In this document: positions 1,715 to 21,517 of the stretch, piece by piece | How positions within the stretch are numbered: the first letter of the stretch is position 1 | Layout: each line of letters opens with the position of its first letter | Assembly: GCA_043803745.1 (NCBI GenBank) | Contig: JAZDJS010000048.1 | Span: forward strand, 4,385-68,384 | Source: an archaeon | GTDB lineage: Archaea; SpSt-1190; DYHY01 | Reading direction: 5' to 3' | DNA: 64,000 nucleotides | Made by a program: the position numbers and the translations under genes | Notes under the pieces: model-generated | Database searches by the model: none | Seen by the model: only the letters and a program-made list of their open reading frames with translations | Told to the model about the DNA's origin: nothing

Positions 1715-4700
1715 CTAGAACAGACCGGTCAGCCAATTCCAGAAATTCTGGAAGGCTCCGAACAGTCCAGTGAAGAATCCAGTCTGTCCGACAGGCGGCT
1801 GTTGTGGCGCTATTGTAGTGGTCGTCGGAACAGTTGTTGTAATTTCCGGCTGCTGCTCTTCTTGCCCCGGTTGTCCCTGGCTTCCTGCGCCTTTTGTGCT
1901 CTTCACGCGCGTCGAAGCAGTATAGTCGATTCCGCCAATCCTTGCTGTGAACTGAACCGTGCCGTCTGCTCCTTCAGGAACAAGCACAGTTGCAGTCAGC
2001 GTCTGTTCCTCGCCCGATTTGAGCAGTCCAGTTGAGCCAATGTCAACGCGCCATCCTTCCGGAGCGCTTGAGGTTATGTCGGTCCCGTAGTCAGCGCAGG
2101 TTCCATTCACGCTCAGGGTCACTAGGATTTCCGCGAAATCGGTGCTTGTTTCGACGTCGGCTGGCGCGGAAAGCGCAAAGTCAGGCCTGCATGTTTCTGC
2201 GGGCGCGCCTCCGCTTCCTCCGCTGCCTCTCACCGGAGGCGCTGGCGGAGAATACGCGGCTGCCGCATAGTACGAAGCCTTGGTGGCGCGGAACGTGCAG
2301 TAGCCGTCGGCAACGATGCAGGTTGTCGGGTCAAGTATCCCGTCCTGGGTCCGTCCCCCGCTCGGGGAAAGGGAACGGAATATTGAAAGCGTTCCCCCGT
2401 TGTGCGCAGGTCCGACGTAAATCGAAATCTGCATTGACGGGCTGAAATATAGTCCCTGCCCGACGATTCCCCATTGGAACGCTCCGACGGAACTGTAGTT
2501 GGCGGGCAGTCCCGAAGCGCTGAAGCTGAAAATATCCGCCGTAAAATCGCGGATATCTACGGGCAAACCGTCCCCGCGGGTTATCTCGGTTCCGTCTTCC
2601 GGATATGCATAGGAATCTCCGGAGCCTATTGCCAGGTTCGTGAAAACGGTTGTTCCCGCAACCCTGACCAGTGCAGGTCCGTCGCTTGAACCGTAGTTAT
2701 AGCAGTAGAGTTTCCCTTCAGGCGAGAAAGAGAGTTCAAAACACATCCCTCCCGGATATCCGGTGTCCGGATTCGTATATGAAAGGAATGTCACGTTGCC
2801 GTTCGACGGGTCTATCTTGTAAATCGAGCCGTCAGACGAGCTGTCCATCGCGCCAATTCCAGCTCCTAACGCAACCGAGTCCGAGCTAGACCCCTCAGTG
2901 TCGCCGCTTCCATAAAGGATTCCGCTGGGCGAGAAAGCCAAACCCTGCGTGAAGAATTCCCTTCCAGTCTGGATTTCAGCATTTTCAACCTCGCCGAAAA
3001 GCTCCTGGATTATCGCTACGAAGGTCAGCTCTCCAGTTTCCTTGTTAATTGTGTAGAGCCGCGAACCGGAGTTTTGGGGGGTGCTTGACCCCTTCACCCC
3101 ATAGAATGTTCCATCGGGCGCGAACGCTATCGCGTTCATTCCCCCATACCAGTATTCATCACCATAGGATATCTTGGCGATTTGCGAAACATCCCCGGTT
3201 GTCGTGTCGACAGTCGCGAGATAGTCGTTGCAAGGGGATGGTACGTGACCGTGCGCAGCCATGTAAAGAATTCCGTTCCCGTCGAAGGCGAACGCGTAAG
3301 GCCTGATTATTGAGGAGTCGTTTAGGTCGTTTAGCTGAACCTTGAAAGACTCCGCGCCAGTCAGCGGGTCGAGCGTGTAGAGATTGTCTTCATATCCCTT
3401 GTATATCGTTCCGTCAGGCGCCACCGCGAAGGCGGTGTTCTGAGCAGTCCATCCATTTATCGGATAGTTGTATCCGACAAGATGGCCTTGTCCTGCCGCG
3501 AAAGTCTCGAAAAGCCCGAACTCGTTAAGAAGGTCCAGGTTCTCAGTCGTAGTTTCAATCGGCTTGGCGAACGTCGTGCAAGTCTCGTCAAGGCACCAGA
3601 AGGAGAAGTCGACCTTTCCGCTGACATTGCCAATTATTTCCGCAAAGCTAGCTGTTCCCCACCAGTTGCGCCAGGCCTTGATTACTTCGCCCTCCGCTTC
3701 CGCTCCGAGAAGCTCGTTGTCAATTATCTTGTTCTTTTCGACAACTACTCCGGTCGAATCAGCGGAATAAATTCCAACATTGTTCGAATCTATCGTGTTG
3801 TCGTGGATTTTGACTTCGCTCATCTCGTAAAGGTCAATTCCGGAACGGTCGTCCTTCCGCACGCCGTTCGAACTTATCTCGTTCCCGTAAATCTCGAAAT
3901 TCGTTCCGTCGTGGAGGTCCAGGCCCTTTGCAAAGTAGGAAATCTTCACGTTCCGGAGGACGATGTTGTCGCTTTCCGAGGAATAGATTCCACTCCCTTC
4001 AGAAGAGGTCTCTTCGAACTCCGCCGATATTGAAAAGGGCTCTATTATGTCCAGCCCCTTGAACTGGAGTATGCTAAGTCCTTCTATTGTCGCATTGCCG
4101 GAATAGATGCTTATGCCGTTTTCTCCGGGAAGCACGCTGATAATCGAATTGTCAACTCCCGCGCCAATTAATCTCAAATGCTTCTGAATCAAAACCGACT
4201 CGCGCCAGGTCCCTTCAGTCAGTTCGACTGTTCCGTGTTCGTCAACGAGAGTCGTTCCTTCGCTGATTGTCGCTTTCGGCGTCACAATGACGTAGGGCGT
4301 TGAAATCCAGTAAAAAGCGGTTTCAGGATCGTCGATTTTCACCGAGGAAATCTTCGTCATCAGGTTTTCCGAGCCTTCGCTCTCAAGGGAGCAGATTTCC
4401 GCCGTGCCGCAGACAGCCCCTCCGTCGGTTCCGTAGATTGTCCCGGGCTTGGACATGATGACTGCTTCGTCATATGTCTCGTTGTCAACGACATAGACGC
4501 TCCCCGCGGGGAACATTGCGTCAACCCCGGCTTGGACTGCGTTGAACGCGTCATAGCCCCAGGTATGGCCGTCGTTGCCGCAGGGTCCCTGCTCTAAGAC
4601 GTCGGGAGTGACTTGGGTGTTCGGGTCGCAGTATTCCTTGCTCACATAGACTGAGCTAGGCCTGTTGTCGTAATGGACGAAGGAACTATCGGTTGTGTTT

Positions 4701-5476
4701 TCCTCGGTAAATGTCGCGGAGTTTCCGGCAGTGTCAGTTACAGTGAACTCGAACGGGACAATTCCGGCAGGGTCTTCTGGATACATCTGGATGAATCCGT
4801 CGATTTCCGGGTCAATCCGCAGGGCTCCGCCAACGCTTGCAAGGCGGCCTTCGATTGTGAATGTTCCTAGTGTGAACTCTTCAGATGAGCCGGCTGCCTT
4901 GACATAGACATATGTCCATGGGCGGGCAAAGGAGGAATTGCCTGAAAAGTCGGAATTGATTCCGACTTGCTCGAATGTCGGGGCGGTCATGTCGAAAGTG
5001 ACGCTTGAACCGTCGGTCGTGGTCGTGACGGGATAAGTTTGAACTAGCAGGGAGCTGACTAGGGGAAGCGCATATGGGTATATCGAGAAAGGAACAATCC
5101 CTTCGGCATCCGATGATTGCATCGCATATTGGGAAACGTATGAAAAGCCGATTGCGGTTCCTTGGTTGGCGATTTCCTGAACAATCGGAACGGAGTGTCC
5201 GGCGATTGTAACTTCAGTCGTCGTTTCGTTAAGGAGCTGATCGGATGAGAACCTCAAAGTGACATTGTCGCCGACTTGCGCGTAAAGGGGGTTCTGGTTG
5301 TCGGAACTTATTCCAACTGGGAAAATGAATGGACCTGGAACCGGGGTCGCCATTGCCGGGGCAATCATCAGCGCTAAAATCGCGAAAATTGCGCAAAGCG
5401 CGGAAAGAAAACCGCCGAACCCCTTCTTGCCTGAAAAACCCGCTTCGTTGTCATAGTTCTGTTTCTTGTTTGTCAT
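1715..5476 (-). CDS. giant secreted surface protein (signal/anchor N-terminus, beta-propeller-like and parallel beta-helix repeats, Thr-rich stalk, conserved aromatic C-terminal tail)
   Basis: 1253 aa. The N-terminus has a basic stretch then a hydrophobic helix (ALCAIFAILALMIAPAMA). Internal N-x-I/V-x-x-N repeats are typical of right-handed beta-helix. The C-terminus is TTTVPTTTTIAP...GFFTGLFGAFQNFWNWLTGLF. Confidence 0.8.
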   Translation of the reverse strand: MTNKKQNYDNEAGFSGKKGFGGFLSALCAIFAILALMIAPAMATPVPGPFIFPVGISSDNQNPLYAQVGDNVTLRFSSDQLLNETTTEVTIAGHSVPIVQEIANQGTAIGFSYVSQYAMQSSDAEGIVPFSIYPYALPLVSSLLVQTYPVTTTTDGSSVTFDMTAPTFEQVGINSDFSGNSSFARPWTYVYVKAAGSSEEFTLGTFTIEGRLASVGGALRIDPEIDGFIQMYPEDPAGIVPFEFTVTDTAGNSATFTEENTTDSSFVHYDNRPSSVYVSKEYCDPNTQVTPDVLEQGPCGNDGHTWGYDAFNAVQAGVDAMFPAGSVYVVDNETYDEAVIMSKPGTIYGTDGGAVCGTAEICSLESEGSENLMTKISSVKIDDPETAFYWISTPYVIVTPKATISEGTTLVDEHGTVELTEGTWRESVLIQKHLRLIGAGVDNSIISVLPGENGISIYSGNATIEGLSILQFKGLDIIEPFSISAEFEETSSEGSGIYSSESDNIVLRNVKISYFAKGLDLHDGTNFEIYGNEISSNGVRKDDRSGIDLYEMSEVKIHDNTIDSNNVGIYSADSTGVVVEKNKIIDNELLGAEAEGEVIKAWRNWWGTASFAEIIGNVSGKVDFSFWCLDETCTTFAKPIETTTENLDLLNEFGLFETFAAGQGHLVGYNYPINGWTAQNTAFAVAPDGTIYKGYEDNLYTLDPLTGAESFKVQLNDLNDSSIIRPYAFAFDGNGILYMAAHGHVPSPCNDYLATVDTTTGDVSQIAKISYGDEYWYGGMNAIAFAPDGTFYGVKGSSTPQNSGSRLYTINKETGELTFVAIIQELFGEVENAEIQTGREFFTQGLAFSPSGILYGSGDTEGSSSDSVALGAGIGAMDSSSDGSIYKIDPSNGNVTFLSYTNPDTGYPGGMCFELSFSPEGKLYCYNYGSSDGPALVRVAGTTVFTNLAIGSGDSYAYPEDGTEITRGDGLPVDIRDFTADIFSFSASGLPANYSSVGAFQWGIVGQGLYFSPSMQISIYVGPAHNGGTLSIFRSLSPSGGRTQDGILDPTTCIVADGYCTFRATKASYYAAAAYSPPAPPVRGSGGSGGAPAETCRPDFALSAPADVETSTDFAEILVTLSVNGTCADYGTDITSSAPEGWRVDIGSTGLLKSGEEQTLTATVLVPEGADGTVQFTARIGGIDYTASTRVKSTKGAGSQGQPGQEEQQPEITTTVPTTTTIAPQQPPVGQTGFFTGLFGAFQNFWNWLTGLF

Positions 5477-5714: not shown

Positions 5715-8700
5715 ATGGGGAAGTTTAGCAAGATTTTAGGACTAGTTGTAGTTTTGTCTGTTTTCGCAGCGTTTGCAGTCGGAGTCGGATTTTCGGTAAC
5801 GGAGCTGAAATATGACGACGGGACAATAGGTTATAGTGGGACTTGGCTTGATTCCGATGGCCAATACGTTGTCAAGTTCGCGCCCGCGCACAAGGGGGAA
5901 ATAACCTGGCTAGGGGCATATGTTTCAAAGGACGGCTCGGACGACGAATGGTGGGCTGGACTTTTGAATTCCGACTATTCAACACTTTCCCCATATGTAC
6001 TGAATTACATTTCGGGCTCAAGCGCCTGGAGATATGCAAGCTTCTCAACAGTCGTTTCCTCCCCATTCTATGCGGCAGTGAAACTCCAGGGATCTGATGA
6101 CGCCCGCCTAGGAAAGGACGGTTCTTCAACTTCAGGCTATAGCGAAGCCAACACAGGTTCCGGCTGGTCAGCGGTCTCAGGGAACCACATGATCCGCGCA
6201 TATATCGACTATTTCCCCGAAGCTTCAAGCATTTCCTTCTCGGAAAACCCGACTTCTGCAAGTTCAGTTACCGTTTATGCGACTTGCACCGAATACGATT
6301 CCGACGACGATGTTGACCACGCCCAAGTCCGGGTTGACGGCGGCTCCTGGGACTGGATGTCCGCTTCCGACGGGAGCTTTAATGAGAACTCCGAGAACGC
6401 ATACAAAACAATTTCGATTTCAGGTCTTTCTGATGGCGACCACACTGTCGAGGTCCGCTGCGAAGACGAGAACAGCAACTGGGGCGACCCGGTTTCGGCA
6501 ACCCTGACAAAGGGGACTTCAGACACGACCGCTCCGGTGACAACCGATGATGTTCCTTCCGGATGGAAGAACACGGATGTCACGGTGACTTTCACCTGCA
6601 CAGATTCGGGCTCTGGCTGCGACAAGGTCTATTACACAACTGACGGGAGCGAACCTGATTCCGGCTCCTCCTATGTCGATTCAGCCTCAAGCTGGCAGTT
6701 CACAATGTCCTCAGAAGGGCAATACACAATCAAATACAGGGGAGTTGACGTTGCAGGGAACTGGGAAACGACGAAGACTGCAGCAAACCTCCTTAGCATT
6801 GACAAGACCGCTCCGGGAATTTCCGGGGCTGCGACAGAAGGCCCTAACGGATTGAATGGCTGGTATGTCTCGGACGTCACGGTAAGATTCGACTGCACAG
6901 ACGACCTTTCCGGTCCGGTTGAATCCTTCTTTGACATTTTCATGACAACTGACGGAGCTGGCCAGTCGGCTTCCGGAACCTGCTACGACCTTGCGGGGAA
7001 TTCCGCAGGAACGACTGTCTCGAACATTGACATTGACAAGACAGTTCCAAGCATTTCCGGGACAGTCAGCCCCTCGCCAAACGGGGATGGCTGGAACAAG
7101 GAGGACGCTACAGTCCATTTCGACTGTTCCGACGCAACTTCCGGAATCTCCTCTTGCACATCAGACGTTCTCGTTACGACTGAAGGAGAAACTCTCGTTA
7201 CCGGGACTGCAATTGACAATGCGGGCAACTCCGCGACAGCCGACATAACGGTAAAACTTGACAAAACGGATCCGGTCACGGAAAGCTCATTTAACCCGGC
7301 AGCCCCAAACGGGCTTAACGGCTGGTATGTTACCGAACCGGAAATAACCCTGACTTTCACAGACGCAGACCCGTCCTCAGGGAAAAAATGGACGAAATAC
7401 AAGGTCAATGGCGGAGATGCTGAGACATATTCGGCTCCGTTCGCGCTTCCCGAAGGAATCCACGAACTGAAATTCCACTCAAAGGACAGGGCGGACAACA
7501 CTGAGGGCTGGAACACAATCTCGAACATAAAGGTCGACACGACTGCTCCCGAAGCGCCCGAATTCTCGGGAACTTCCCCATACTATGACGGAGACGGGGA
7601 CTTTTACGTTTCCTGGAGCTCTTCGAGCGATGCGACATCGGGAATAAGGGGCTATGCCCTATACCGGTCGCTTAACGAAGGGTCGTTCGTCCTCATGGGA
7701 GTTTTCCTCGACACAACCTACCACGAGCAAAGCCCCGGAATCGATTCAAGATACGGCTACAAGGTTTCCGCAATTGACAATGCGGGGAACGAAGGGGCTC
7801 AGAGCGAAGAGAAGGTTGTCGTAGTCGACAGGATGGACCCGACAGCGCCGCTTATGCACGACCTTCCGCCATATATCGGCGAAACAGAGGTTACTGCCTC
7901 CTGGGACCATGCGGCTGACACCGGCGTCTATCCTTCCGGAATATCGACATATGATGTCTATGTGAATAGCGCACTTGACGGCAGCACAACATATCCGGAC
8001 AACGACTATTACAAGGACTCGCTTGCGAACGAGCAGACCTACCTTTTCAAGACGAATGCCTGGGACAAATCAGACCCTGCAAACGAGGGTCCGATGTCAA
8101 ACGAGGTCGGGACAACTGTCGACCTGACTGACCCGGTCACAACCGCGATTTTCAACCCGGAGACTCCGAACGGGAACAACGGCTGGTATATCTCAAGACC
8201 GTCGATAACTCTTTCGGCAGTTGATTCGGGCTCGGGCGTCTACAAGACATATTATTGCTTCGACCAGATTGCTTCTGGAACCAGTTCCCTTGATGTTGAG
8301 ACTGAGGAGACTGAGGAGACTGGGGACAACGAGACTGTTGAAGGCGACCGCTGGCATCCGACAACAACAACGACTGTCGCACCAACACCATGCACGCCAT
8401 CCGCCGAATACACAGGACCCTTCCAGATAGACACGGAAGGGACCAACTATGTCAGGTTCTATTCGGTTGACAACGTCGGGAATGTGGAAACGGTCAATGA
8501 AGTCTCATTCAAGCAGGACCTTAACGAGCCGACGAACCAGTGGTTTTTCCTCAATGGAGGCAATTACTATTCGGACGACTCTGACGTTGGAGCGTGGTAT
8601 GATTCCGGGAAGGATACAAGCAAAGGCAGCGGACTTGACTATTGCGTAATTGACTGGGGAGACGATTCCCAGACAACTGTCTCGAAATCAAGCAACCACG

Positions 8701-10568
8701 TGCACCACACATATGCCGACGGCGAATATACCGCAAGCTATGTCTGCTATGACAATGCGGGGCACTCGAGCGAGCCTGAAACCGACGAGATTTTCGTTGA
8801 CACGGTAGACCCGGCAACATCAGCTGCGCTCAATCCGGCGGAGCCGGACGGGGACAACGGCTGGTATGTTTCTGAGGTTGAAGTCGCTCTGACTGCAACA
8901 GACCCGGAGCCAGCATCGGGAATATACCGGACCTATTACTGCGTTGACCAGATTCCAGATGGGAGCGGCGACGACGCAATTGAAGGAACTGAAGTTGACG
9001 GCGACTGGGGATGGCATCCTCCAAGGCCTTGCACTCCGAACACAAGATATACGCATCCGTTCGACGTCTCTGATGACGGGACGAACTATGTGCGGTTCTA
9101 TTCCGTTGACAAGGCTGGAAACGAGGAAGAAACCCAGACAATCTCTTTCAAGCAGGACGAGACAAACCCGGAAACCGACCACTCGGTTTCCCCAAGGAAC
9201 CCTGACGGGGACAACGAATGGTATGTCTCGGAAGTTGACGTGACTCTTGACGCTGACGATGACACATCCGGCGTCTACCAGACACTCTACTGCGTGAAGC
9301 AAAGCCTTGCCTGCGAAGAAGAGGAAGAAGGGGATGGCGAACCGGAACCAACTTGGTGGCATCCCCCTGCGCCGGAAGAGCCTGAATGCGAACCGGACAC
9401 TCTCTATGACGGGACTTTCACAGTGCTTCTAGAAGGGAAGACCTCAGTAACCTACATGTCAATTGACAATGCGGGAAACGAGGAGGAAATGCACACCTTC
9501 TCGTTCAAGCAGGACTGGACCGACCCGACAACGACAGCGACAACCGACCCGTCCGAACCGAACGGGAACAACAGCTGGTTCAACTCAACAGTTCAGTTCA
9601 ACCTTACCGCTGTTGACGGGCGTGCTGAAACGCCTTCCGAACCGGAAGGGGAAACAATCGAATCCGGCTGCTTCTGGTGGTGGTGGCAGCATCCGCCTGC
9701 GGATGGAGAAGTTCCATGCACCTCTGGAGTCCACAGAACGTACTATTGCATTGACTATGGCGCGGAAACTGGGGTTGTCGGCTGCTCAGCCGAATCCGAG
9801 GATTGCGGGGCATGCTACCCGAGGACAAGATACACGGAGCCTCTGAACCTGACCTATGAGGGACTGCAAACAATCCGGTTCTTCTCGGTTGACAAGGCCG
9901 GTAACCGCGAGGGAATCCAGGAACAGGGAATCTGGATTGACACGGTTGCCCCGGAAAGCACAATAACTGCTCCGGCGAACATGTCGAACTATTCGGCAAT
10001 CGGGACCCTTGTAATCAGGGGGAACAGCTCGGACGAGACAAGCGAAATCTTCGCAGTCGAAGTTGTTGTCAAGAACGCGGGAGGCTATGCGCTGATGAAC
10101 TGGACCGCTTCCGAAATTAACGCGACAGGGGACTGGAATTTCACCTGGACGCCTGGCGGATACGGGACCTACTACATAAGCTCGAGGGCAATCGATGCTG
10201 CGGGTAACTTTGAAACGGAGCCGGAAGAGATTGTTGTCTACTTCCCGGAGCCGCCTCTCAAGGTGCAAACCTATGGCGGGTTCTACGTAAGGACCTGTGG
10301 CAACGGGGTCTGCAACGCGAACATCGGCGAGAACGAACGGACCTGTCCGGAAGACTGCAAGGCTCCTGAAGAGGAAGAGCCTCTTGAGAACGCCGAAGAG
10401 CTAGTCAACCAAGTGACGACAACGACGGTCCAGCCGACGACAACGACGACGGTCCAACCCCAGCAAGGGACGCTTAACCCGAGACCGGGAATGCTCCCAA
10501 CAGGACGGTTCGTCCTTTTCGACCTGGCGGACCAGTTCTGGCAGTGGCTGTCTGGTTTGATGCAGTAA
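5715..10568 (+). CDS. giant secreted adhesin-like protein with at least 8 tandem NGWY-type Ig-like repeats, an FN3-like module, acidic stretches, a Cys motif, a Thr-rich stalk and a conserved aromatic C-terminal tail
   Basis: 1617 aa with an N-terminal signal peptide (MGKFSKILGLVVVLSVFAAFAVG). The unit P(N/D)G-x-NGWY-x-S-x-V-x-V-x-(F/L)-x-(C/A)-x-D-x-x-SG-(V/I) recurs at least 8 times, as in OmpL47-type / chitobiase-C Ig-like domains. It is followed by CGNGVCNANIGENERTCPEDC, a TTTTVQPTTTTT stalk and ...FVLFDLADQFWQWLSGLMQ. Confidence 0.85.
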   Translation: MGKFSKILGLVVVLSVFAAFAVGVGFSVTELKYDDGTIGYSGTWLDSDGQYVVKFAPAHKGEITWLGAYVSKDGSDDEWWAGLLNSDYSTLSPYVLNYISGSSAWRYASFSTVVSSPFYAAVKLQGSDDARLGKDGSSTSGYSEANTGSGWSAVSGNHMIRAYIDYFPEASSISFSENPTSASSVTVYATCTEYDSDDDVDHAQVRVDGGSWDWMSASDGSFNENSENAYKTISISGLSDGDHTVEVRCEDENSNWGDPVSATLTKGTSDTTAPVTTDDVPSGWKNTDVTVTFTCTDSGSGCDKVYYTTDGSEPDSGSSYVDSASSWQFTMSSEGQYTIKYRGVDVAGNWETTKTAANLLSIDKTAPGISGAATEGPNGLNGWYVSDVTVRFDCTDDLSGPVESFFDIFMTTDGAGQSASGTCYDLAGNSAGTTVSNIDIDKTVPSISGTVSPSPNGDGWNKEDATVHFDCSDATSGISSCTSDVLVTTEGETLVTGTAIDNAGNSATADITVKLDKTDPVTESSFNPAAPNGLNGWYVTEPEITLTFTDADPSSGKKWTKYKVNGGDAETYSAPFALPEGIHELKFHSKDRADNTEGWNTISNIKVDTTAPEAPEFSGTSPYYDGDGDFYVSWSSSSDATSGIRGYALYRSLNEGSFVLMGVFLDTTYHEQSPGIDSRYGYKVSAIDNAGNEGAQSEEKVVVVDRMDPTAPLMHDLPPYIGETEVTASWDHAADTGVYPSGISTYDVYVNSALDGSTTYPDNDYYKDSLANEQTYLFKTNAWDKSDPANEGPMSNEVGTTVDLTDPVTTAIFNPETPNGNNGWYISRPSITLSAVDSGSGVYKTYYCFDQIASGTSSLDVETEETEETGDNETVEGDRWHPTTTTTVAPTPCTPSAEYTGPFQIDTEGTNYVRFYSVDNVGNVETVNEVSFKQDLNEPTNQWFFLNGGNYYSDDSDVGAWYDSGKDTSKGSGLDYCVIDWGDDSQTTVSKSSNHVHHTYADGEYTASYVCYDNAGHSSEPETDEIFVDTVDPATSAALNPAEPDGDNGWYVSEVEVALTATDPEPASGIYRTYYCVDQIPDGSGDDAIEGTEVDGDWGWHPPRPCTPNTRYTHPFDVSDDGTNYVRFYSVDKAGNEEETQTISFKQDETNPETDHSVSPRNPDGDNEWYVSEVDVTLDADDDTSGVYQTLYCVKQSLACEEEEEGDGEPEPTWWHPPAPEEPECEPDTLYDGTFTVLLEGKTSVTYMSIDNAGNEEEMHTFSFKQDWTDPTTTATTDPSEPNGNNSWFNSTVQFNLTAVDGRAETPSEPEGETIESGCFWWWWQHPPADGEVPCTSGVHRTYYCIDYGAETGVVGCSAESEDCGACYPRTRYTEPLNLTYEGLQTIRFFSVDKAGNREGIQEQGIWIDTVAPESTITAPANMSNYSAIGTLVIRGNSSDETSEIFAVEVVVKNAGGYALMNWTASEINATGDWNFTWTPGGYGTYYISSRAIDAAGNFETEPEEIVVYFPEPPLKVQTYGGFYVRTCGNGVCNANIGENERTCPEDCKAPEEEEPLENAEELVNQVTTTTVQPTTTTTVQPQQGTLNPRPGMLPTGRFVLFDLADQFWQWLSGLMQ

Positions 10569-10668: not shown

Positions 10669-11601
10669 ATGAAAGTCTATTTCCTTTCTCCGAACAGGAA
10701 GCAGCTGATTTTTCCGGAGGCGGAAGCAAGGCTTGCCGGGCTGGACGTGCATTTTGAGGAGAAGAAGAAGAAACCCCTGGAGAAAGTCAAGGGGCTCCTT
10801 TCGCCCGGGGAGAAGATTCTCGCGCTCGACCCGGACTTTTGCTCCTGGAACTTCCCGAAACGGGAGCTGGAAAAAATCCCGGACCTGAAAGCAATCTGCC
10901 TCCAGACGACCTCGTTCTCCTGGGTTGATTGTTCCGCTGCGAAGGAACGGGGAACCCCGGTGATCAACGTCAGGAACTATTCGACCGATTCGGTTGCGGA
11001 ATGGGCGGTCCTGATGGCTTTGATGGTCGGACGGAAAATCCCGCTCGTTCTCAAGGACAAACTGAAGAGGAATATTGCTCGCCACAAAGGCTTCGGGACC
11101 GATGGGAAGGTTGCGGGAATAATCGGCTTAGGTCATATTGGGAAAAGGATCGCTGAGCTCTGCCTCGGACTTGGAATGGATGTGATCTATTGGTCAAGGG
11201 CTTCGCGGGACAGCCGTTTCCGGCTCGCCGGCGGACTTGCAGAGATTTTTGAGACTGCAGATTTCATTTTCCCCGCCCTTGCCAAGAATGAGGAGAGTGC
11301 GAAACTGATAACAGACGACTTTCTGAAAAGGATGAAAGGGACGGCGATTTTCACAAGCATTGTCCACGCGGTTTACAACGAGAAGCTGCTTTTGAGGCTT
11401 GCCGAAGCGGGAAAAATAGGCGGCTATGCTTTCGAGTTCGAGCCGGGCGAGGAGAAGAAATTCTCAAAGCTTTCCGGGAACATACTTGCGCTCCCGGGGC
11501 TTGCCTGGGCAACAGACAGTTCGTTCAGGCGGAACGGAGAGATTTGGGTGGAGAACATCCTGAAAGCGGCAAAAGGGGATTTTTCCGGACGGATTAACTG
11601 A
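10669..11601 (+). CDS. D-isomer-specific 2-hydroxyacid dehydrogenase family (phosphoglycerate/glyoxylate reductase-like)
   Basis: 310 aa with the NAD-binding Rossmann motif GIIGLGHIGKRIAELCLGLGMDV and overall D-2-HADH architecture. Confidence 0.8.
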   Translation: MKVYFLSPNRKQLIFPEAEARLAGLDVHFEEKKKKPLEKVKGLLSPGEKILALDPDFCSWNFPKRELEKIPDLKAICLQTTSFSWVDCSAAKERGTPVINVRNYSTDSVAEWAVLMALMVGRKIPLVLKDKLKRNIARHKGFGTDGKVAGIIGLGHIGKRIAELCLGLGMDVIYWSRASRDSRFRLAGGLAEIFETADFIFPALAKNEESAKLITDDFLKRMKGTAIFTSIVHAVYNEKLLLRLAEAGKIGGYAFEFEPGEEKKFSKLSGNILALPGLAWATDSSFRRNGEIWVENILKAAKGDFSGRIN

Positions 11602-12256
11602 ATTTTCTTTTTCCCCTGTCCGTGCTGCGGCACCGAGGGTCTGAGGACCAAACGGTTTTTTCCGAAGGAAAAAGGAGTTCAAGAAGTCAAGAAGTTTCAG
11701 AACGGCACTGTCGAGCCATCAGGCGAAGATAGTGCGCTTTCCCCGAGGGCTTTTGCAAAGGGCTCGAGAATGGCGCCAAGACAGTCAAGAAAAAGGGTTT
11801 CCGGAAGCGCGCAAGCGACCTGATAAAAATGGCGTTTCCCGTGAACGGACTTTTTCCAGAGGAAAAAAGGGGTTCTGGAATGGCGTAAGCCCATCATTGG
11901 CCGACATTTCCCTTTTCAGGGTTCGTCCGTTTCTTCTAGGACACCTCAGGGCCTTTTTGTGTTTGCTTGCTTGTTTGCTGCTCTTTGTTTTTTCCCGGGC
12001 CAGCGACAAATCCGGACCGGGGTCTCGTTTGTGGAGCGACGAACCTGCCCTTATACGCCTTGGGGCGAGTCCATCTCTCGTTTCTTCGTTCTCTCTATTC
12101 TCCGAAGGTCACCGGGTCCGGATCGTGACCGGACGCTTTCCCTGTTTCGGGGAGTGTGCCCTGCAGATTTTTTCTGTGGGTTCTGTCTGTTGGACAGGGG
12201 TGAGAAAGTTGCTGAGCTAACAGCAACCTCCGTTTCTGTTCCTTCTGCGGCTACTA

Positions 12257-12304
12257 GAACTGGCTAGTTGTTGAGATCCAGTTCCACGCATTCTCTCTTT
12301 TTTG
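12257..12304 (+). terminator. terminator-like hairpin (GAACTGG/CCAGTTC, 7 bp) followed by TTCTCTCTTTTTTG
   Basis: Perfect 7-bp stem with a 14-nt loop and a T-rich tail; sits in intergenic space. Confidence 0.35.
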
Positions 12305-12486
12305 ACAGGACTAGGAGTTGCGGAGCGATGAATGTGATTTAGGCAGGTAAGCGGTGATGAACTGCCGCGTCCCCTCAGGGCGCTATAATGGGTTTTATGG
12401 GGGTGGCTTTCTGGAAGAACAAAGCCCCCAAGGGGACGGCTGGCTGTCGGAAACCGGCTTACAGGGCTCAGACAATTCTTCCCGCA

Positions 12487-12526
12487 GCCGCAGCCTATGA
12501 GGGCTGCGGCCGTAATTGGGGTTTTT
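12487..12526 (+). terminator. terminator-like hairpin (GCCGCAGCC/GGCTGCGGC, 9 bp, loop TATGAG) followed by GGGGTTTTTGGGG
   Basis: Perfect 9-bp GC stem plus a T5 run. Confidence 0.35.
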
Positions 12527-12681
12527 GGGGTTTGGCTGGTGAGAAGTTGCATGGAAGAAAAGCCCTCGGAAACCCTTAAGGTAAGCCGGTTTGACTGGGA
12601 ATTTGTCATTTGATTATTTTTCTTTCCTTAGTTTTCTTTTCTGATTCTTTTTTGGTTGTTTGAAGAGTGGGGTGACGGAAG

Positions 12682-12716
12682 GGCCGGCGCCTGCCGGCCA
12701 ATCCGCTCTTTTTTTT
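12682..12716 (+). terminator. terminator (GGCCGGC-GCCT-GCCGGCC hairpin plus T8)
   Basis: Perfect 7-bp GC stem and tetraloop, with a T8 run 9 nt downstream. It is on the plus strand, although the adjacent ftsZ is on the minus strand, which implies a plus-strand transcript upstream. Confidence 0.5.
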
Positions 12717-12806
12717 CCCGCTCTCGTGTTTCTCTTCGTTCTTTTGCTCTTGCCGCGTGTCTGGTTTGCGTTTTGCTGCGGCTTCTTCTTGTCTTTGTTC
12801 GTCTGT

Positions 12807-13874
12807 TTAGGCAAGCACAGGTATTCCAAGGCTGTTTGCTGTCTGCTTCGTCCTCACTGAAGTTTCCCTTGGATTCACTGCGCCGAGGATGTGAGGCGAC
12901 TTTACTCCGGTAATTATCGTCATTACGCGGATTGAGCCTTCCAGTGCCGGGTCGATTCTCGCTCCCCAGATTACTGATGCGCCCGCATCCATGTCCTTCG
13001 CTACAAGGTCTCCGATCGTGTTGACCTCGTCCAGCGTCATGTCCGGTCCTCCGACAACATGCACCATTGCGCCGGTTGCGCCCTTGTAGTCAACATCGAG
13101 CAACGGGTTCGAAAGCGCCTTCCGGACAGCTTCCTCAGCGCGGTTCTCGCTTGTCGATTCCCCGACTCCGATTACCGCAACCCCGCCGTTTGACATTACT
13201 GCCTTGACGTCCGCATAGTCTAGGTTGACAAGGCTTGGAACTGCAATCGTCTCGACAATCCCCTTGATCATTGTTGCAATCAATTCGTCTGCAACAGCGA
13301 ATGCCTGGGCAATTGGGAGCTTTCCTGCAACCTCGACGAGCCTGTTGTTGTCAATCACGATTACGGTGTCCGTCGTCTGCCTGAGCTCATAGAGTCCCGC
13401 TTCAGCCTTGAAAATCCGCGCCTTTTCCATTTTGAAAGGCATCGTCACAACGCCGATTACAATCGAGCCCTGTTCCTTCGCAAGCTGCGCAACGACTGGC
13501 GCGCTACCGGTTCCGGTTCCTCCGCCCATTCCAGCAGTCACAAAGACCAGGTCACAGTTTCTGAGAGAATCCTTTATTTCGTTCCTCGCTTCCTCAGCTG
13601 CCGCCCTTCCGACTTCTGGATATCCGCCAGCCCCAAGGCCTTTTGTAAGGTCGCGTCCGATCAAGATCTTCTTGTCAGCTTCCCTTGCATCAAGGTGTAG
13701 CTTGTCTGTGTTGAGAGCTACAACCGTCGCGCCCTGTATCCCAAGCCTGTAAAGCCTGTCTGCAGTGTTGTTTCCGGCTCCTCCACAGCCGACTACCACT
13801 ATCCTGGCTTGGCCGACTTCAAAGTCTGCCCCAGGTCTTGCCGCGTTTGCCGCACTTTGTAGGACGTAGTCCAT
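12807..13874 (-). CDS. ftsZ: cell division GTPase FtsZ
   Basis: 355 aa with the tubulin signature GGGTGTGSAPVVA, an N-terminal GCGGAGNN GTP-binding loop and a NTD(K)L motif. Confidence 0.95.
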   Translation of the reverse strand: MDYVLQSAANAARPGADFEVGQARIVVVGCGGAGNNTADRLYRLGIQGATVVALNTDKLHLDAREADKKILIGRDLTKGLGAGGYPEVGRAAAEEARNEIKDSLRNCDLVFVTAGMGGGTGTGSAPVVAQLAKEQGSIVIGVVTMPFKMEKARIFKAEAGLYELRQTTDTVIVIDNNRLVEVAGKLPIAQAFAVADELIATMIKGIVETIAVPSLVNLDYADVKAVMSNGGVAVIGVGESTSENRAEEAVRKALSNPLLDVDYKGATGAMVHVVGGPDMTLDEVNTIGDLVAKDMDAGASVIWGARIDPALEGSIRVMTIITGVKSPHILGAVNPRETSVRTKQTANSLGIPVLA

Positions 13875-14333
13875 TTTCTTTTTTCACCCCGGTCATTTCT
13901 TTCTTTGACACTTTCCCGGTCCATTTCCCGGACGTTTGCCCGAGGATTGCATCGGAGTGCCGAAATGACTATATACCTTGGATAGCGTTAGCTACCCCAA
14001 GAAGTTCGAAAACAATTGAACCTTACCAGTTCAAGAAAATAGAATTTCAACTACCAAACTAGAAAAGACGGAAAGGACCTGTCCGAAACGCTTACCAGGC
14101 GTCCGGGCAAATGCCAAGAAACCGTTACCAGCGGCTCTTGCGCGTTGCGAATCCTACTTCTCTTTCCGCCGTTTTGATATATATCCCTAGTTGCACTCTG
14201 AATACTGCTATCAAATCAGTGTAGCCAAGAGCAATAATTGAAGTTTGGCGTTCTAGGCGCTGAATCCCCGGAATTCTTGAATTGACCCTTTGCGGATAGT
14301 CACTTTTTTGAGTAGTATTTATACCTGAAAGAG

Positions 14334-15696: not shown

Positions 15697-17868
15697 ATGG
15701 GCTCTTTGCGGAAACGTTCGGTCTTTCTCCTTTTGCTCCTGTGTCTCCTGCTTTCGCTCGCCAACTCTGCCGAAATCTCCTCCTGCGGAACCGAGATCTC
15801 CTCTTCCGGAAGCTATTCCCTCTCAAAGAACATCTCCGGCTCAAGCATAAACATCCAGAACGTGTACCTGGCTTGCCTGAAGGTTTCCTCATCCCACGTT
15901 TCAATTGACTGCGCGAATTTTTCAATAACGGAGAGCTCCCCGGGAAAAACTGTCGGAATTTTCGTCCAGGGGCTTGTGAGGAACGTCACAATTCGCAACT
16001 GCAAGAGCCTTTCCGGATTTGAAACCGGAATCTACCTTTCCGGGGCTCTTGACGGGGGGATTTCGGGCTCGAATATCACCGGGAACATCAACGGAATCAG
16101 GCTGATTTCCTCGGAAAACTTCAACCTTACCGAAAGCAATGTTTCGGGGAACGTCATCGGGCTCTACAGCTATTTCGGGGAACGGAATTTCGCGGTCGGG
16201 AACATCTTTTCCCGGAACCGCCTCGTCGGAATAAAGGTCGAGGGACCGACTGCCCAGCGGCTTCCCGGACAGGGGAACTTCTTCTTTTGGAACAACGTTT
16301 CCGGAAGCGAGCAGGGATTCGAAATAACTAGGGCGAACGGGAACCTGCTCATAGGCAATCAGATCTCAAACTCAAGCATGTACGGGATACGCATCGCATA
16401 CTCAAGGGACAACAACATCTCCCTGAACGCGATTTCGGGCTCGAAGAGGGTCGGCCTCTTCCTTGACACCTCCTCGGGCAACCTGTTCAGCTGCAACAAT
16501 TTCTCCGGAAACCTTGTTGACATTGACACCTACTATGCAAACGAGAACCTTGGAAACGCATCCTGCGACGGGGCCAATGTAACGATTGGAACGCCCCAAA
16601 ACCAGACCAGGACAACTGCGCAGCTAACGACGATCCCTGCTTGCGCCTGCACCCCTTGGGTTTCCCGGGGATGCAATACGGGAAGCTGCCAATACGGAAG
16701 CGAATTCTCGGAAAGGTCCTGCGCACCGGCGGGATGCGCATCGGAGAAAACGTGCATAATAAACGCATATTGCTATCGGCAGATTCCACTGGAAAACGCG
16801 CCCCAGACGAGCGTTCCCATCGAATCGTCCTGCCCTGCGAACTGCGACGATTCCAATCCTTGCACTGTCGATTCCTGCTCGGAAGAAACGGGCTTCAATT
16901 GCCGCCACGCAAGCCTACCTGAAGGGGCTTCCTGCGGAAAAGACCTTTTCTGCAAGGCAACTAGCGAATGCGCGCAAAAAAGCGAGCCACAGCAAAGCTG
17001 CCCTGCTTGTTCCGAACCGGGTGCTTGGTCCGGATGCTTGGATGGCGTGCATAGCCGGACAATACAGATATGCGGCCAGGAAACCGGATATTTCTGCGTT
17101 CCATACATTGAAAGGGGGGCTTGCCTGCTTCCGGCGCAGACAACCGTCCCTGCCGCAACAGCGCCCCCTTCCTCGTGCAGGGAGAACTCGGAATGCCCGG
17201 CAACGAATGTCTGCTCGGGAGGGCAGTGCGTTCCCGCAAAGCTGGTTCTTGTTTTTGTTCCGCTCAATTGGACTGGGAGCGCGCAGAGTTTCTCGGAAGA
17301 GGCCGATCGTCAGGCGAATTTCCTTCTGGCGAACCTGCCCCTTTCCGGCTGCCCGGAGAAGGTCAAGATTCTGAAGGGAACCGAACCCTGCGCTGCGCAG
17401 ATATCCTGCAAATATTGCGGCGAGGCGCTTTCAATCCGGAGCTGCGCAAAAAGGGTTTCGGCAAGCGTTGACATTGCGATAGGGCTCACGAACCTGGACT
17501 CCCTCTGCAAGACGGAAATCCGCGGATTCTCCTGCGGTGCGGGGGGCGTTTTCGTCAAATCGGGCGGTTCCGAGGTTCTTGCCCACGAGGTTGGGCACGA
17601 GTTCGGTCTCCGCGACGAATATTGCAATTACGGAACCCGCTGCGGGGAATTCGCAGCTCCAAATCCCCTCCGCGCGGAATACGGCTGCAATCCCTCGGAT
17701 GCGAACTGCTGCTGGTGCTCCGGAAGCTATTCAGTCTGCTGCTATGGGAACGTTAACGAGTTCGGCGGACGCTCGATCATGAGTTATGCCGGAGCCCCCG
17801 CCCCCAGGGCTTTCGACTATCCGGCGCTTGCGCACCTTAAAAGCCTGGAAAAACTGAGGTGTAACTGA
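15697..17868 (+). CDS. secreted parallel beta-helix (NosD/CASH-like) protein with a Cys-rich region and a C-terminal HExxH zinc-metallopeptidase-like motif
   Basis: 723 aa with a signal peptide (MGSLRKRSVFLLLLLCLLLSLANSA). It has about 10 repeats of the form G-I/N-x-x-x-x-S-x-N-x-I/F-S/T-G-N. The central third carries more than 20 Cys, and the C-terminus has LAHEVGHEFGLRDEYC (HExxHxxGxxDE). Confidence 0.7.
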   Translation: MGSLRKRSVFLLLLLCLLLSLANSAEISSCGTEISSSGSYSLSKNISGSSINIQNVYLACLKVSSSHVSIDCANFSITESSPGKTVGIFVQGLVRNVTIRNCKSLSGFETGIYLSGALDGGISGSNITGNINGIRLISSENFNLTESNVSGNVIGLYSYFGERNFAVGNIFSRNRLVGIKVEGPTAQRLPGQGNFFFWNNVSGSEQGFEITRANGNLLIGNQISNSSMYGIRIAYSRDNNISLNAISGSKRVGLFLDTSSGNLFSCNNFSGNLVDIDTYYANENLGNASCDGANVTIGTPQNQTRTTAQLTTIPACACTPWVSRGCNTGSCQYGSEFSERSCAPAGCASEKTCIINAYCYRQIPLENAPQTSVPIESSCPANCDDSNPCTVDSCSEETGFNCRHASLPEGASCGKDLFCKATSECAQKSEPQQSCPACSEPGAWSGCLDGVHSRTIQICGQETGYFCVPYIERGACLLPAQTTVPAATAPPSSCRENSECPATNVCSGGQCVPAKLVLVFVPLNWTGSAQSFSEEADRQANFLLANLPLSGCPEKVKILKGTEPCAAQISCKYCGEALSIRSCAKRVSASVDIAIGLTNLDSLCKTEIRGFSCGAGGVFVKSGGSEVLAHEVGHEFGLRDEYCNYGTRCGEFAAPNPLRAEYGCNPSDANCCWCSGSYSVCCYGNVNEFGGRSIMSYAGAPAPRAFDYPALAHLKSLEKLRCN

Positions 17869-18512: not shown

Positions 18513-18517
18513 TAACT

Positions 18518-18874
18518 GTGGAAGGGACAAGCCGGGAGAAGATGGCTCCGGCAAGGCGTTACATAGTAAGGGACATAGAAGACGCAAACGAATTTGCAGC
18601 GGATGCGAGAACTGGCCGCGGGGAGCATTTCGGATTCTTCCACCAAGGCCCTTTGCTTTCCAATGCGGCTAGGAAGGAAGCTCTTGAAAAAGCCTGGGAA
18701 CACTGGAACGCTGCATACAGGGGCCTTGCGCACTATGCCGGGGATTCCTTCCCGCTATTCACGCATCCGATACTTTTGTTCAGAGTCTTGGCAGCAGAAA
18801 ACGCGGTTAAATATGCCGATGGATCTCTCGAATCTGAACTGAGGGCAAACTACAAGCAACCAGTCGCCGTTTGA
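18518..18874 (+). CDS. hypothetical protein
   Basis: 118-aa ORF directly downstream in the same orientation. Confidence 0.35.
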   Translation: MEGTSREKMAPARRYIVRDIEDANEFAADARTGRGEHFGFFHQGPLLSNAARKEALEKAWEHWNAAYRGLAHYAGDSFPLFTHPILLFRVLAAENAVKYADGSLESELRANYKQPVAV

Positions 18875-18925
18875 GAAACTCGGTCAAAGACCCCGCCAGC
18901 CCTAAAGGGCGGAGGCTTTCGCGAT

Positions 18926-20146: not shown

Positions 20147-21517
20147 TTATTTAACGTTTCCCCATTGCGGCTCAAGGAAATCCTTTTCCGAAATCCGCTC
20201 GTTTATTTCCCCGGCAAGGTTTTCCTGCATCAGGGCGCGCACCTCTTCCGGGCTCTTTTTCTGCCCGAGAAGCCAGGCAAGCTTCACATATGCGGTTTCC
20301 GGGAGAGTGTCCTTTGCGAAAACGGCGCCGGTTTCCCCGAGAAGCCTGAGGTTCCGGTATGTGTACGGATGGACTGCTCCGTAAATCGCCTGGCTTGTCA
20401 TTGCGACGACAATTCCCGCATCAACGGCGTTCTTGATTGAAGGCAGCCAGGATTTGGGACCGTTGGTTATGACGTGTCCGAGCCCGGTTCCCTCGATTAC
20501 TATTCCCCTGAAGCCCTTTGAAGCGTAATGGTCGATGACTTCCGGGGAAAGGTTCGGGGCAATCTTGACAATCGCGGTCCTGTCCTCGAAATCGGGGCGC
20601 AGTTTCAACTCCGCGCAAGCTCCGGCTTTCCGGGGCTCCCCGAGAATCTCGATTCTCCCGTCCGGGAAGATTTTTGCGAACGGCGCCTTGTTAACCGACT
20701 GGAAGGCATCCCTCCGTGAAGTGTGCATTTTCCTTGCCTTCGTTCCCCAATGGGCGAGGCAGTAATCGTCGTTTGTTGTGCCGTGCATCACAAGAAAAAC
20801 CCCTGCGGAAGCCTGCTTGGCAATGAAATTCGCCGCGCAGAGGAGATTTATCGAGCCGTCGAAGCTTCCCCGGTCTGGCGACCTTTGCGCTCCGACGACG
20901 CAAACCGGTTTTTCAAGGTTCTGGAGAGCAAATGAGAGCGCGGCGGAAGTGTAGTGAAGGACGTCGGTTCCGTGGGTGACAATCACCCCGGAAATTTCCT
21001 TCTTGGAGAGCATCCGCCCGACCTCCTCTGCAATCAGGGAGAAATGGGAGAAATCCATGTCCTCGGATGCTATTGTGAACGGGGAGGAAACCTCGGCAAT
21101 GTCAACTATTTTCGATATTTCCGGGACTGTTGAGATTACCTCCTCGGGCGTGCGGCACATGTAAACGCCTCCGGTCGAATAGTCGACATGCGTTCCGATT
21201 GTTCCGCCTGTCGAAACAAGCCCGATTTTCGGGAGCGCGCCAGCCGGCTTCTCCGCCCTTGCCGGGATTATCTTGCCTATCTTTATCCCCTCTCCAGTCT
21301 TGCGAACCGACCTTATTTCCGATGGGGAAATTGCAAGGTTGTATCCGGTCGGAAGCTTGAGAACCAGATTTTCCCTGTTGCCCGCCGAAATTCGGGGCAT
21401 GAGTATCCCCTGCTCCTTCGCACCGGAAGAAAGCTCGACTTCAATCGCATTCCCCTCGGCTATTTTTCCGGACGCAAGGAAGCGCGCCTCGATTTCTGGA
21501 GGATAACTGCCGGACAT
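20147..21517 (-). CDS. gatD: Glu-tRNA(Gln) amidotransferase subunit D
   Basis: 456 aa with an N-terminal GatD-specific domain then the asparaginase-family motif IGLVSTGGTIGT; divergent from gatE. Confidence 0.9.
   Translation of the reverse strand: MSGSYPPEIEARFLASGKIAEGNAIEVELSSGAKEQGILMPRISAGNRENLVLKLPTGYNLAISPSEIRSVRKTGEGIKIGKIIPARAEKPAGALPKIGLVSTGGTIGTHVDYSTGGVYMCRTPEEVISTVPEISKIVDIAEVSSPFTIASEDMDFSHFSLIAEEVGRMLSKKEISGVIVTHGTDVLHYTSAALSFALQNLEKPVCVVGAQRSPDRGSFDGSINLLCAANFIAKQASAGVFLVMHGTTNDDYCLAHWGTKARKMHTSRRDAFQSVNKAPFAKIFPDGRIEILGEPRKAGACAELKLRPDFEDRTAIVKIAPNLSPEVIDHYASKGFRGIVIEGTGLGHVITNGPKSWLPSIKNAVDAGIVVAMTSQAIYGAVHPYTYRNLRLLGETGAVFAKDTLPETAYVKLAWLLGQKKSPEEVRALMQENLAGEINERISEKDFLEPQWGNVK

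Follow-up and report, generated by a model that had tools for sequence, protein, structure and literature searches.

In the 64-kb stretch of archaeal DNA analysed here (the window; contig JAZDJS010000048.1), a 2-hydroxyacid dehydrogenase gene (10669-11601, + strand) and the gene ftsZ (12807-13874, -) converge on a gap of 1205 nt (11602-12806). Comparison with related genomes indicates that this gap very probably encodes a conserved structured RNA on the ftsZ strand. Some 940 nt of it (12806 to ~11863, -) are homologous to, and colinear with, the 0.8-0.9 kb stretch that follows ftsZ in three other lineages of the same clade. The original prediction for this locus had guessed at one or several structured RNAs. 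That part of the guess is borne out by conservation and covariation in four lineages, whereas the evidence on the strand favours the minus over the plus strand. The spacer finding itself is real: it holds more than terminators, lies on the strand opposite to the one first proposed, and is not RNase P.

The spacer behind ftsZ and its relatives

No plausible open reading frame (ORF) had been seen between the two genes, and the gap indeed proved to be non-coding by Pfam, protein-library and tblastx checks. Its only two sizeable ORFs, of 130 aa (12217-12609, -) and 162 aa (11732-12220, +), are both of odd composition. Neither of them matched Pfam, and a search of the 130-aa ORF against 1.84 billion proteins returned only three weak, multi-stretch matches, which we read as low complexity. 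Furthermore, tblastx between the window spacer and the homologous spacer of the nearest relative (L001) revealed no protein-like or amino-acid-level similarity. The two ORFs are what could suggest that the spacer holds a pseudogene or small genes that annotation has missed. Against this stand the searches just described, the homologous spacers, which lack called genes bar one 67-aa call in L101, and the finding that helices are conserved and not a reading frame. A coding origin of the spacer is thus very improbable, and it was rejected on the grounds of protein homology and amino-acid conservation.

Perfect inverted repeats in the spacer exceeded expectation, with two of k=12 observed against 0.09 expected (P=0.017, dinucleotide shuffles) and eight of k=10 against 1.08 expected (0/300 shuffles). 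No second copy of the spacer is present in the window, and a repeat or mobile element was rejected for this reason. The spacer is not the only sizeable gap, as the original prediction had it in stating that genes elsewhere are spaced by less than 100 bp: ORF-free gaps of 459 nt (13875-14333), upstream of ftsZ, and ~410 nt (18513-18925) also exist in the window.

The FtsZ protein of the window groups with those of DPANN archaea and sits in a 90%-identity cluster of 8 members (P0001). The nearest species-representative genome, L001, is labelled Ca. Micrarchaeum sp., and its ftsZ is 97% identical at the amino-acid and 82% identical at the nucleotide level. Homologous spacers were compared in L001 and in L101, L102/L103, L104 and L105, the latter from three members of the cluster. 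Together they represent four lineages of one genus-level clade, namely the window, L001, the L101 group (L101, L102 and L104) and L105. The multiple alignment comprises six sequences, and the covariation support for the window RNA draws on these four lineages. Between lineages, ftsZ is 82-86% identical in nucleotides and its four-fold degenerate sites are saturated, at an identity of only 34-52%. Helices are nevertheless kept by compensatory changes.

In all of these homologues, ftsZ is followed by 0.8-1.7 kb without called genes (the 67-aa call in L101 apart), and in L001 by ~0.8 kb without a convincing ORF. A blastn search of the spacer against 80 ftsZ loci gave no match outside ftsZ. Direct alignment to L001 gave short colinear blocks on the ftsZ strand, and the closer relatives found later made the homology clear. 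More specifically, hairpin H1, unit B, unit A, the CACCCCUG module, hairpin H-d, the k-turn module and the ACGCCAU block with its T-runs, all described below, are colinear across the clade; the exceptions are in L001, which has no clear ACGCCAU block and only a variant k-turn. The next gene differs from lineage to lineage: it is the dehydrogenase in the window, a nucleotidyltransferase in L105, a 273-aa protein in L102 and a giant NosD-type protein in L101. Because the downstream gene changes while the spacer stays, the spacer travels with ftsZ.

A metagenome scan with the pattern CACCCCTGWCCRACAGACA yielded 7 stretches, all of them chance matches with neither ftsZ nor further similarity. The pattern is too strict, as the internal spacing of the block differs in L105. 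Beyond the ACGCCAU/T-run block, L101 (5890-6515) and L104 (5930-6799) hold more than 600 further nt without called genes, again bar the small call in L101. Many metagenomic contigs end 3-410 nt past ftsZ (L081, L082, L083, L085, L006, L007, L069, L080), which may reflect assembly breaks in low-complexity A-rich tracts or simply short contigs; L085 is identical to L084 and stops 408 nt past ftsZ.

Architecture and strand of the probable RNA

Read from ftsZ, the region opens with an A-rich, U-poor linker (12708-12806, -) directly after the stop codon, the equivalent of which measures 16-70 nt in L105, L001 and the L101 group. The linker contains no T-run, so that ftsZ transcription is not expected to stop there. 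As no terminator signal separates ftsZ from the region, the ~940 nt from 12806 to ~11863 are most likely transcribed as a long 3' extension of ftsZ, which is possibly processed into a stable RNA. We infer the transcript, its ends and its processing from the sequence. The composition of the minus-strand RNA between 12806 and 11869 is 33% A, 28.5% C, 23.7% G and 14.8% U.

Hairpin H1 (12674-12707, -) consists of a 7-bp GC stem (GGCCGGC AGGC GCCGGCC) and a 5-bp outer stem, and folds at -24.8 kcal/mol (z -4.45). It is found in all four lineages (97.6% paired), with double changes in two of its seven pairs and a sense-strand G·U in the L101 group; its outer stems differ in sequence among lineages. 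Just 3' of H1 lies a single-stranded UCACCCC (12669-12675, -), which complements the ftsZ ribosome-binding site GGGGUGA exactly.

Unit B (12451-12592, -) is a long irregular hairpin that is closed by a 12-bp helix, AAACCGGCUUAC / GUAAGCCGGUUU, and displays an unpaired C-rich motif. Its closing helix is the perfect 12-nt complement of 12451-12462 and 12581-12592 that had caught the eye at the outset, and it is conserved with compensatory changes. The unit is unusually stable (z -6.39), and its consensus over the six sequences comprises 23 pairs, 91.2% paired, of which 8 show double changes (0/500 shuffles). Slid alignments, used as controls, are only 26-55% paired, and G·U pairs are conserved. 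A covariance model of the unit, R2, matches the window copy with an E of 3.7e-17, the window itself being a training sequence. The C-rich loop motif AGCCAAACCCCAAAAACCC (12519-12537, -) aligns with UUCUAGCCACCCCCAAA(A)CCC in L001, L101, L102, L104 and L105.

Unit A (12369-12437, -) is a hairpin with a stem of 12-13 bp, including two G·U pairs in the window copy, and a 43-nt loop. Its consensus has 11 pairs, 87% paired, and 4 of them show double changes (1/500 shuffles). Stem sequences bear no relation to each other among lineages, in contrast to the loop motif, which is kept. This motif, AGCCACCCCCAUAAAACCC (12390-12408, -), provides the only exact GCCACCCCC in the window, and unit A shares CCCCCAUAAA(A)CCCAUU with L105. 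The loops of both units keep UUCU...(A/G)CCACCCCCAAA(A)CCC. Stems of at least 9 bp enclose just two of the occurrences of [AG]CCA[AC][AC]CCC in the window, namely the two spacer copies.

The original prediction had read the region on the plus strand, antisense to ftsZ, as RNA ending at three elements made up of a hairpin and a T-run. Hairpins are indeed present at 12257-12304, 12487-12526 and 12682-12716, but several lines of evidence favour the minus strand. Read on the plus strand, the G·U pairs conserved in H1 and unit B would turn into A·C mismatches, and the same applies to the two G·U pairs in the window copy of unit A and the two in the hairpin before CACCCC. Runs of at least five T number twelve on the plus strand of the spacer; on the minus strand there are none from 12806 to 11869, followed by four. 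Oligo-T is the signal for transcription termination in archaea, and the twelve plus-strand runs would stop transcription repeatedly. Over the whole region, the folding z-score is -5.4 for the minus strand vs -1.9 for the plus strand in the window, and -0.8 vs +2.4 in L001. In distant relatives, too, the C-rich motif is on the same strand as ftsZ and precedes the ftsZ terminator. In L095-L100 and L004-L008 it stands 10-40 nt past the stop, directly before a terminator hairpin and T-run, which leaves no room for a separate promoter.

A plus-strand RNA would be consistent with the good local folding of that strand (unit B z -5.2) and with the hairpin and T8 geometry at 12674-12716. The element at 12682-12716 is the only one with near-canonical plus-strand geometry, and its T8 is not kept in the homologue L001. 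Behind two of the noted inner stems, the T-runs begin 9-11 nt away instead of within 0-2 nt. Terminator-like sites occur at chance level, with 4 found vs 4.6 expected, and none of them is one of the three proposed terminators. Given the evidence on the strand, these are mostly reverse complements of minus-strand helices beside A-rich tracts: the third corresponds to H1, and the second to the GCCGCAGCC hairpin contained in unit B. We consider structured RNA on the plus strand improbable.

A faint resemblance to RNase P RNA had also been suggested, with signal recognition particle (SRP) RNA as a further candidate, and the Rfam search lent neither any support. Rfam 15 gave no match in the whole window at gathering thresholds, only unrelated families at E<=10 in 11400-13000 on both strands (best E=0.31), none in 20 related ftsZ loci and none at E<=0.5 in the four homologous loci. 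The string taken for the RNase P element CR-II is the reverse complement of the conserved hairpin and CACCCC motif in the CACCCCUG module, and the string taken for CR-V is one arm of the unit B helix. A highly diverged RNase P RNA, SRP RNA or C/D box small RNA (sRNA) could be suspected from the arms of unit B, which in the L101 group resemble the strands of RNase P helix P4 (AAAGCCGG / CCGGCUUU), and from the k-turn, which archaeal RNase P and C/D RNAs also possess.

With archaeal RNase P RNA (RF00373), the window RNA thus shares a GC-rich long-range helix with P4-like arms and a k-turn. Unlike it, the window RNA has no covariance-model match even at E<=10, and the other conserved regions are absent. 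Its helix encloses only ~100 nt (93-118 nt of C-rich loop) and no catalytic core. In the window, the helix 12592-12581 / 12462-12451 encloses 118 nt, made up of the C-rich loop and one hairpin, while the CR-II string lies outside it and in the opposite strand sense. There is also no full C / D' / C' / D box arrangement, and a complete C/D box sRNA at the 3' end was rejected because no consistent C and D boxes were present. Derivation from any of these known RNAs is extremely improbable.

The remaining features of the RNA are arranged around and behind the two units. Before unit B runs an A-rich tract (12600-12640, -), whose AAAUGAC...AAACCGG resembles, and does not complement, the ftsZ leader AAAUGACCGGGG (compared with 13887-13900); a block AAAUGAY / CAUGUU is kept at this tract in all lineages. 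The conserved block GUCCUGUC... follows unit A and precedes the CACCCCUG module. At 12297-12316 (-), the conserved block GUCCUGUCAAAAAAGAGAG is colinear with positions 7474-7492 of L001, and its A-run is the plus-strand T6 of the first proposed terminator. The stem of that terminator belongs to a 9-bp hairpin, UGGAACUGG...CCAGUUCUA (12256-12287, -), whose conservation is not established.

The CACCCCUG module (12183-12231, -; fold z -2.73) is composed of the hairpin GGAGGUUGCUG..CAGCAACUUUC with its two G·U pairs, a single-stranded UCACCC and the hairpin CUGUC-CAACA-GACAG. CACCCCUG itself is invariant, and all six sequences share an identical CACCCCTG. The hairpin in front of CACCCCUG is present in every lineage with a sequence of its own, and is out of register in the ungapped alignment. 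Hairpin H-d (12116-12134, -) has a stem of 6-7 bp and the conserved loop UCAYGAU, with double changes in 5 of its 7 pairs (five sequences). It is followed by a CAAG/CAAAC-rich low-complexity tract (11960-11985, -), similar to tracts in L001, L084 and the L101 group.

Close to the 3' end lies a k-turn-like module (11891-11949, -), in which CUGA is followed by a helix of variable sequence and AAUGAUGG. Inspection of the alignment shows the two boxes, CUGA and AUGA, to be invariant and the C49-G106 pair to be retained, with pairing of the helix preserved through changes in its sequence (GGUUCCC/GGGAGCC, GGGCUC/GAGUCC, AGCC/GGCU, GGU/GCC). The module matches the consensus of the k-turn, an L7Ae-binding motif, and binding of L7Ae is a prediction. 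With k-turn and box C'/D' L7Ae motifs it shares CUGA, a helix and RAUGA-N-G, in an arrangement with tandem G·A pairs, a bulge of 3 nt and a C-G pair at the flank; unlike those, it does not belong to a full C/D guide RNA and has neither an upstream C box nor a consistent downstream D box.

The 3' terminal block, GGGCUUACGCCAUU and then U6 (11863-11892, -), is the likely 3' end. Its GGGC..ACGCCAU lies 800-920 nt past the stop, with ACGCCAT at +920 in the window and at +821, +801, +848 and +858 elsewhere, and T-runs follow it in the window, L101 and L104. Beyond this block, the window has a tail (11650-11862) that finds no counterpart in L001 or the other lineages. It contains two more copies of CGCCAUU and a T-run (11836-11820 and 11777-11757, -), and two UUUCCNNNGGAAA hairpins with T-runs on both strands, and these probably act as terminators, either back-up or bidirectional, for the two convergent genes. 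Degenerate plus-strand direct repeats, AAAAAGGGNTYCNGGAA..GCG..AAGC, span 11650-11890 and correspond to the triplicated minus-strand CGCCAUU and T-run modules; they are likewise specific to the window.

The UUUCCNNNGGAAA-type repeats look similar to archaeal origin recognition boxes (ORBs), which flank an AT-rich unwinding element in archaeal origins, mostly close to orc1/cdc6 and with a shift in skew. A DNA-level element could be considered, either a mobile repeat or a replication origin, as the ORB-like UUUCCNNNGGAAA + GGGG repeats (11656-11685, 11851-11880) would suggest. The sequence TTTCCNNNGGAAA occurs twice in the spacer and three times in the whole window, vs 0.5 expected. On the other side, no Orc1/Cdc6 gene was found among the 18 larger ORFs checked, the spacer coincides with no global GC-skew extreme, and the window holds no other copy of it. 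The ORB-like repeats are absent from the other lineages, and T-runs of both strands fall at the same places, as would be expected of terminators between two convergent genes. An element of this kind is highly improbable, and the replication origin was rejected since the repeats are not conserved, orc1/cdc6 was not found and there is no skew shift. A G-quadruplex reading of the antisense G-tracts was dropped because the widespread short form of the hairpin, described in the following, has one C-run only.

A short hairpin downstream of ftsZ in DPANN archaea

In many DPANN archaea, ftsZ is followed by a simpler hairpin with a CCACCCCC loop, and ~55 of the first 85 ftsZ loci carry a hairpin with a C-rich loop behind the gene. 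The Woesearchaeota-type form has the stem GCCUUCAYY / RRUGAAGGC and the loop ..ACCACCCCCAAC.. Examples of the Woesearchaeota / Nanoarchaeota type are found in L010-L079, ~30-200 nt past the ftsZ stop and on the ftsZ strand (for instance L016:7109-7170 and L040:6354-6413). Across 38 sequences this short hairpin is 92.8% paired, with double changes in 9/11 pairs (0/500 shuffles). All matches of its covariance model, R1, across 813 kb are at the site downstream of ftsZ, and the short hairpin matched no Rfam family. In most cases a UCACC..GGUGA hairpin precedes it and a terminator hairpin stands on its 3' side. In several loci (L010, L017, L046, L077) a T-run intervenes between ftsZ and the short hairpin, which may be a separate small RNA there. 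The short DPANN-wide hairpin appears to be undescribed.

Intermediate forms also occur. The loops of L003 and L093 are identical (UUCUAGAUACCACCCCCGACCCGAGACCCUCUAGGCCACC) and their stems differ (L003:3425-3500, L093:4085-4165), while L002, L082 and L084 carry UUCUA(A)GCCACCCCC. The window RNA shares with the DPANN-wide hairpin the strand, the position after the stop, the C-rich loop motif, a UUCU 5' of the C-run and a G-run in the ftsZ site. More specifically, its units lie at 12592-12451 and 12437-12369 (-), 215-440 nt past the stop. The loop pattern (A/G)CCACCCCC(A)A occurs as GCCACCCCCAUAAAA in the 43-nt loop closed by 12-13 bp and as GCCAAACCCCAAAAA inside the 12-bp-closed unit B, and these are the only stem-enclosed copies in the window.

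The short form differs in being a single ~45-nt hairpin in an RNA of ~100-150 nt or a short 3' untranslated region (UTR), and the window units have different stems and larger loops and go undetected by R1. A linear profile built from the other loci (nhmmer) ranks unit A top in the window, with an E of only 0.13 over 128 kb. As R1 misses the units and the profile reaches only this value, we read the window RNA as a clade-specific, greatly expanded relative of the short hairpin and not as a member of the narrow R1 family.

The ftsZ ribosome-binding site and possible roles of the RNA

The ribosome-binding site of ftsZ, GAC(C)GGGGUGAA, is invariant in the clade and in the window contains GGGGTGA at 13884-13890 (-). 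This heptamer occurs 7 times in the window, and judged from the ORF list the ftsZ copy alone stands at the position of a ribosome-binding site. A conserved TATA-like block, GGTATATAGTCATTTCGG, is located ~70-105 nt before the ATG in the window, L001, L081 and L105, a position that implies a leader of ~40-75 nt containing AAAUGAC(C)GGGGUGAA. The RNA in turn carries two copies of UCACCCC and the invariant CACCCCUG, which are complementary to GGGGUGA over 6-7 bp, as well as the two loop motifs; the C-rich GCCACCCCC likewise complements this site. CACCCC is found 3 times in the spacer RNA vs 0.5 expected (P=0.01).

Among the wider set of loci, a G5 run is present in the ftsZ site of 36/58 loci with a C-loop hairpin vs 2/23 without one (Fisher 1e-5). 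In Woesearchaeota-type loci ftsZ has G5 in 34/49 cases, vs 10 G5 against 116 canonical sites for other genes (2e-19). A second ftsZ paralogue in the same metagenome-assembled genomes (L071 and L078 vs L016 and L042) shows the canonical GAGGUGA and lacks the hairpin. In L003 and L093, the loop ACCCUCUAG is a perfect 9-nt complement of the CUAGAGGGU in their own ftsZ site. A survey of ribosome-binding sites in the window genes was too noisy and was not used.

The best explanation overall, held with modest confidence, is a structured RNA that trails ftsZ and would act on the ftsZ ribosome-binding site. In this model, the exposed C-rich motifs (the loops of units A and B, CACCCCUG and the second UCACCCC) would pair with the G-rich site, in cis or, after processing, in trans, and by masking it would adjust how much FtsZ is made. 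L7Ae, recruited by the k-turn, would stabilise the RNA. The anti-ribosome-binding-site mechanism taken by itself is a tentative proposal. Equally tentative is the broader picture of a large (~0.85-0.94 kb) class of structured RNA, probably bound by L7Ae and fused to ftsZ in a DPANN genus, which would share a CCACCCCC-loop core with DPANN archaea at large and would regulate through a co-adapted G-run in the ribosome-binding site.

Several results weigh against this picture. The statistics on ribosome-binding sites are not phylogenetically independent, and no locus-specific co-evolution of loop and site was detected, as matched and mismatched duplexes have equal energies (permutation p 0.61). 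The complementarity is therefore a generic one of G-run and C-run, over 6-7 bp in the clade. In the window, the best duplex with the 5' UTR (P=0.015) falls in a stretch that is itself paired, and the L001 RNA forms no significant duplex with its ftsZ 5' UTR (P=0.25). The whole region is not unusually stable in L001 (z -0.84). Within the L101 group, the spacer as a whole diverges about as fast as silent sites (78-90% vs 77-85%), so that only helices and short blocks are constrained and a large part of the 0.9 kb may be dispensable or spacer-like. The L101 group also has a T6 inside the loop of unit B (L101:5290-5295, L102:5291-5296), which could cause partial termination within the RNA.

The connection between the long and the short form is open to similar criticism, as it rests on position, strand, hairpin context and a motif of 9-12 nt. 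With filters off, R1 gave no match in the spacer at E<=10, and its best match in the window (E 0.0075) is an unrelated hairpin at 20729. Conversely, R2 does not reach beyond the clade, giving an E of 0.62 for the L084 hairpin.

A serious rival, which we nevertheless regard as rather unlikely, keeps the same minus-strand RNA and replaces pairing with the ribosome-binding site by protein binding. The RNA would then form a platform or ribonucleoprotein, with a KH-type poly(C)-binding or other protein on the C-rich loops and L7Ae on the k-turn, and would control the stability or localisation of the ftsZ mRNA or titrate a factor. Conservation of the loop motifs in sequence, without locus-specific co-variation with the ribosome-binding site, would agree with such a role, as would the k-turn-like module, which suggests L7Ae binding, and the several repeated C-rich and A-rich tracts. 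However, no candidate protein was identified, and protein binding leaves unexplained both the unusual G-run in the ftsZ site of C-loop loci and the 9-nt complement in L003 and L093.

Pairing of the RNA with the ftsZ ribosome-binding site, the reading that we prefer, has parallels among bacterial regulators. 6C of Actinobacteria and RsaE/RoxS of Firmicutes are RNAs of ~60-100 nt, and DicF of E. coli is encoded on a prophage. Like the window RNA, 6C and RsaE/RoxS have hairpins that display conserved C-rich loops; unlike it, they are bacterial and encoded by stand-alone genes, and no such family was among the Rfam matches. The window element is archaeal, ~0.85-0.94 kb long, fused to ftsZ and equipped with a k-turn module. 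With DicF and an sRNA of Klebsiella it would share the proposed logic, in which an RNA complementary to the ribosome-binding region of ftsZ controls FtsZ synthesis. Those two are bacterial, Hfq-dependent and encoded elsewhere, and show no similarity to it in sequence or structure, whereas the window element lies in cis, after ftsZ, with a function predicted from sequence. The C-rich loops of 6C pair with G-rich sites in mRNAs (PMC6486639), and in Corynebacterium 6C has been linked to cell-division and SOS phenotypes (PMC5014011). The Klebsiella sRNA, a regulator of cell division, represses ftsZ translation by pairing with the ribosome-binding site (PMC10907235). DicF represses ftsZ in the same manner.

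Full-text searches of a paper library turned up no account of an RNA motif linked to ftsZ in DPANN archaea. C-rich-loop regulatory RNAs are already known, as are regulators that arise from 3' UTRs, and the unusually large, ftsZ-fused archaeal form would be new. We know of no account of cell-division control in DPANN archaea, whose genomes are tiny and contain few regulators that can be recognised, and to our knowledge large structured non-coding RNAs with covariation support are rare in archaea. An RNA tied to ftsZ, together with an atypical G-run site, would open a concrete, testable way into the post-transcriptional control of division in DPANN archaea, with an element that spans from a short DPANN-wide hairpin to an elaborate 0.9 kb form in one clade. 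For annotation, the seemingly empty spacers behind ftsZ should not be treated as junk, and the strand on which they are read matters.

Finally, very large proteins of a secreted or surface type surround the ftsZ locus in this clade, at 1715-5476, 5715-10568 and 15697-17868 in the window and in the flanks of L101-L104. They contain NosD / beta-helix, Ig-like and CHB_HEX domains and measure 723-1617 aa in the window and more than 2000 aa in L101.

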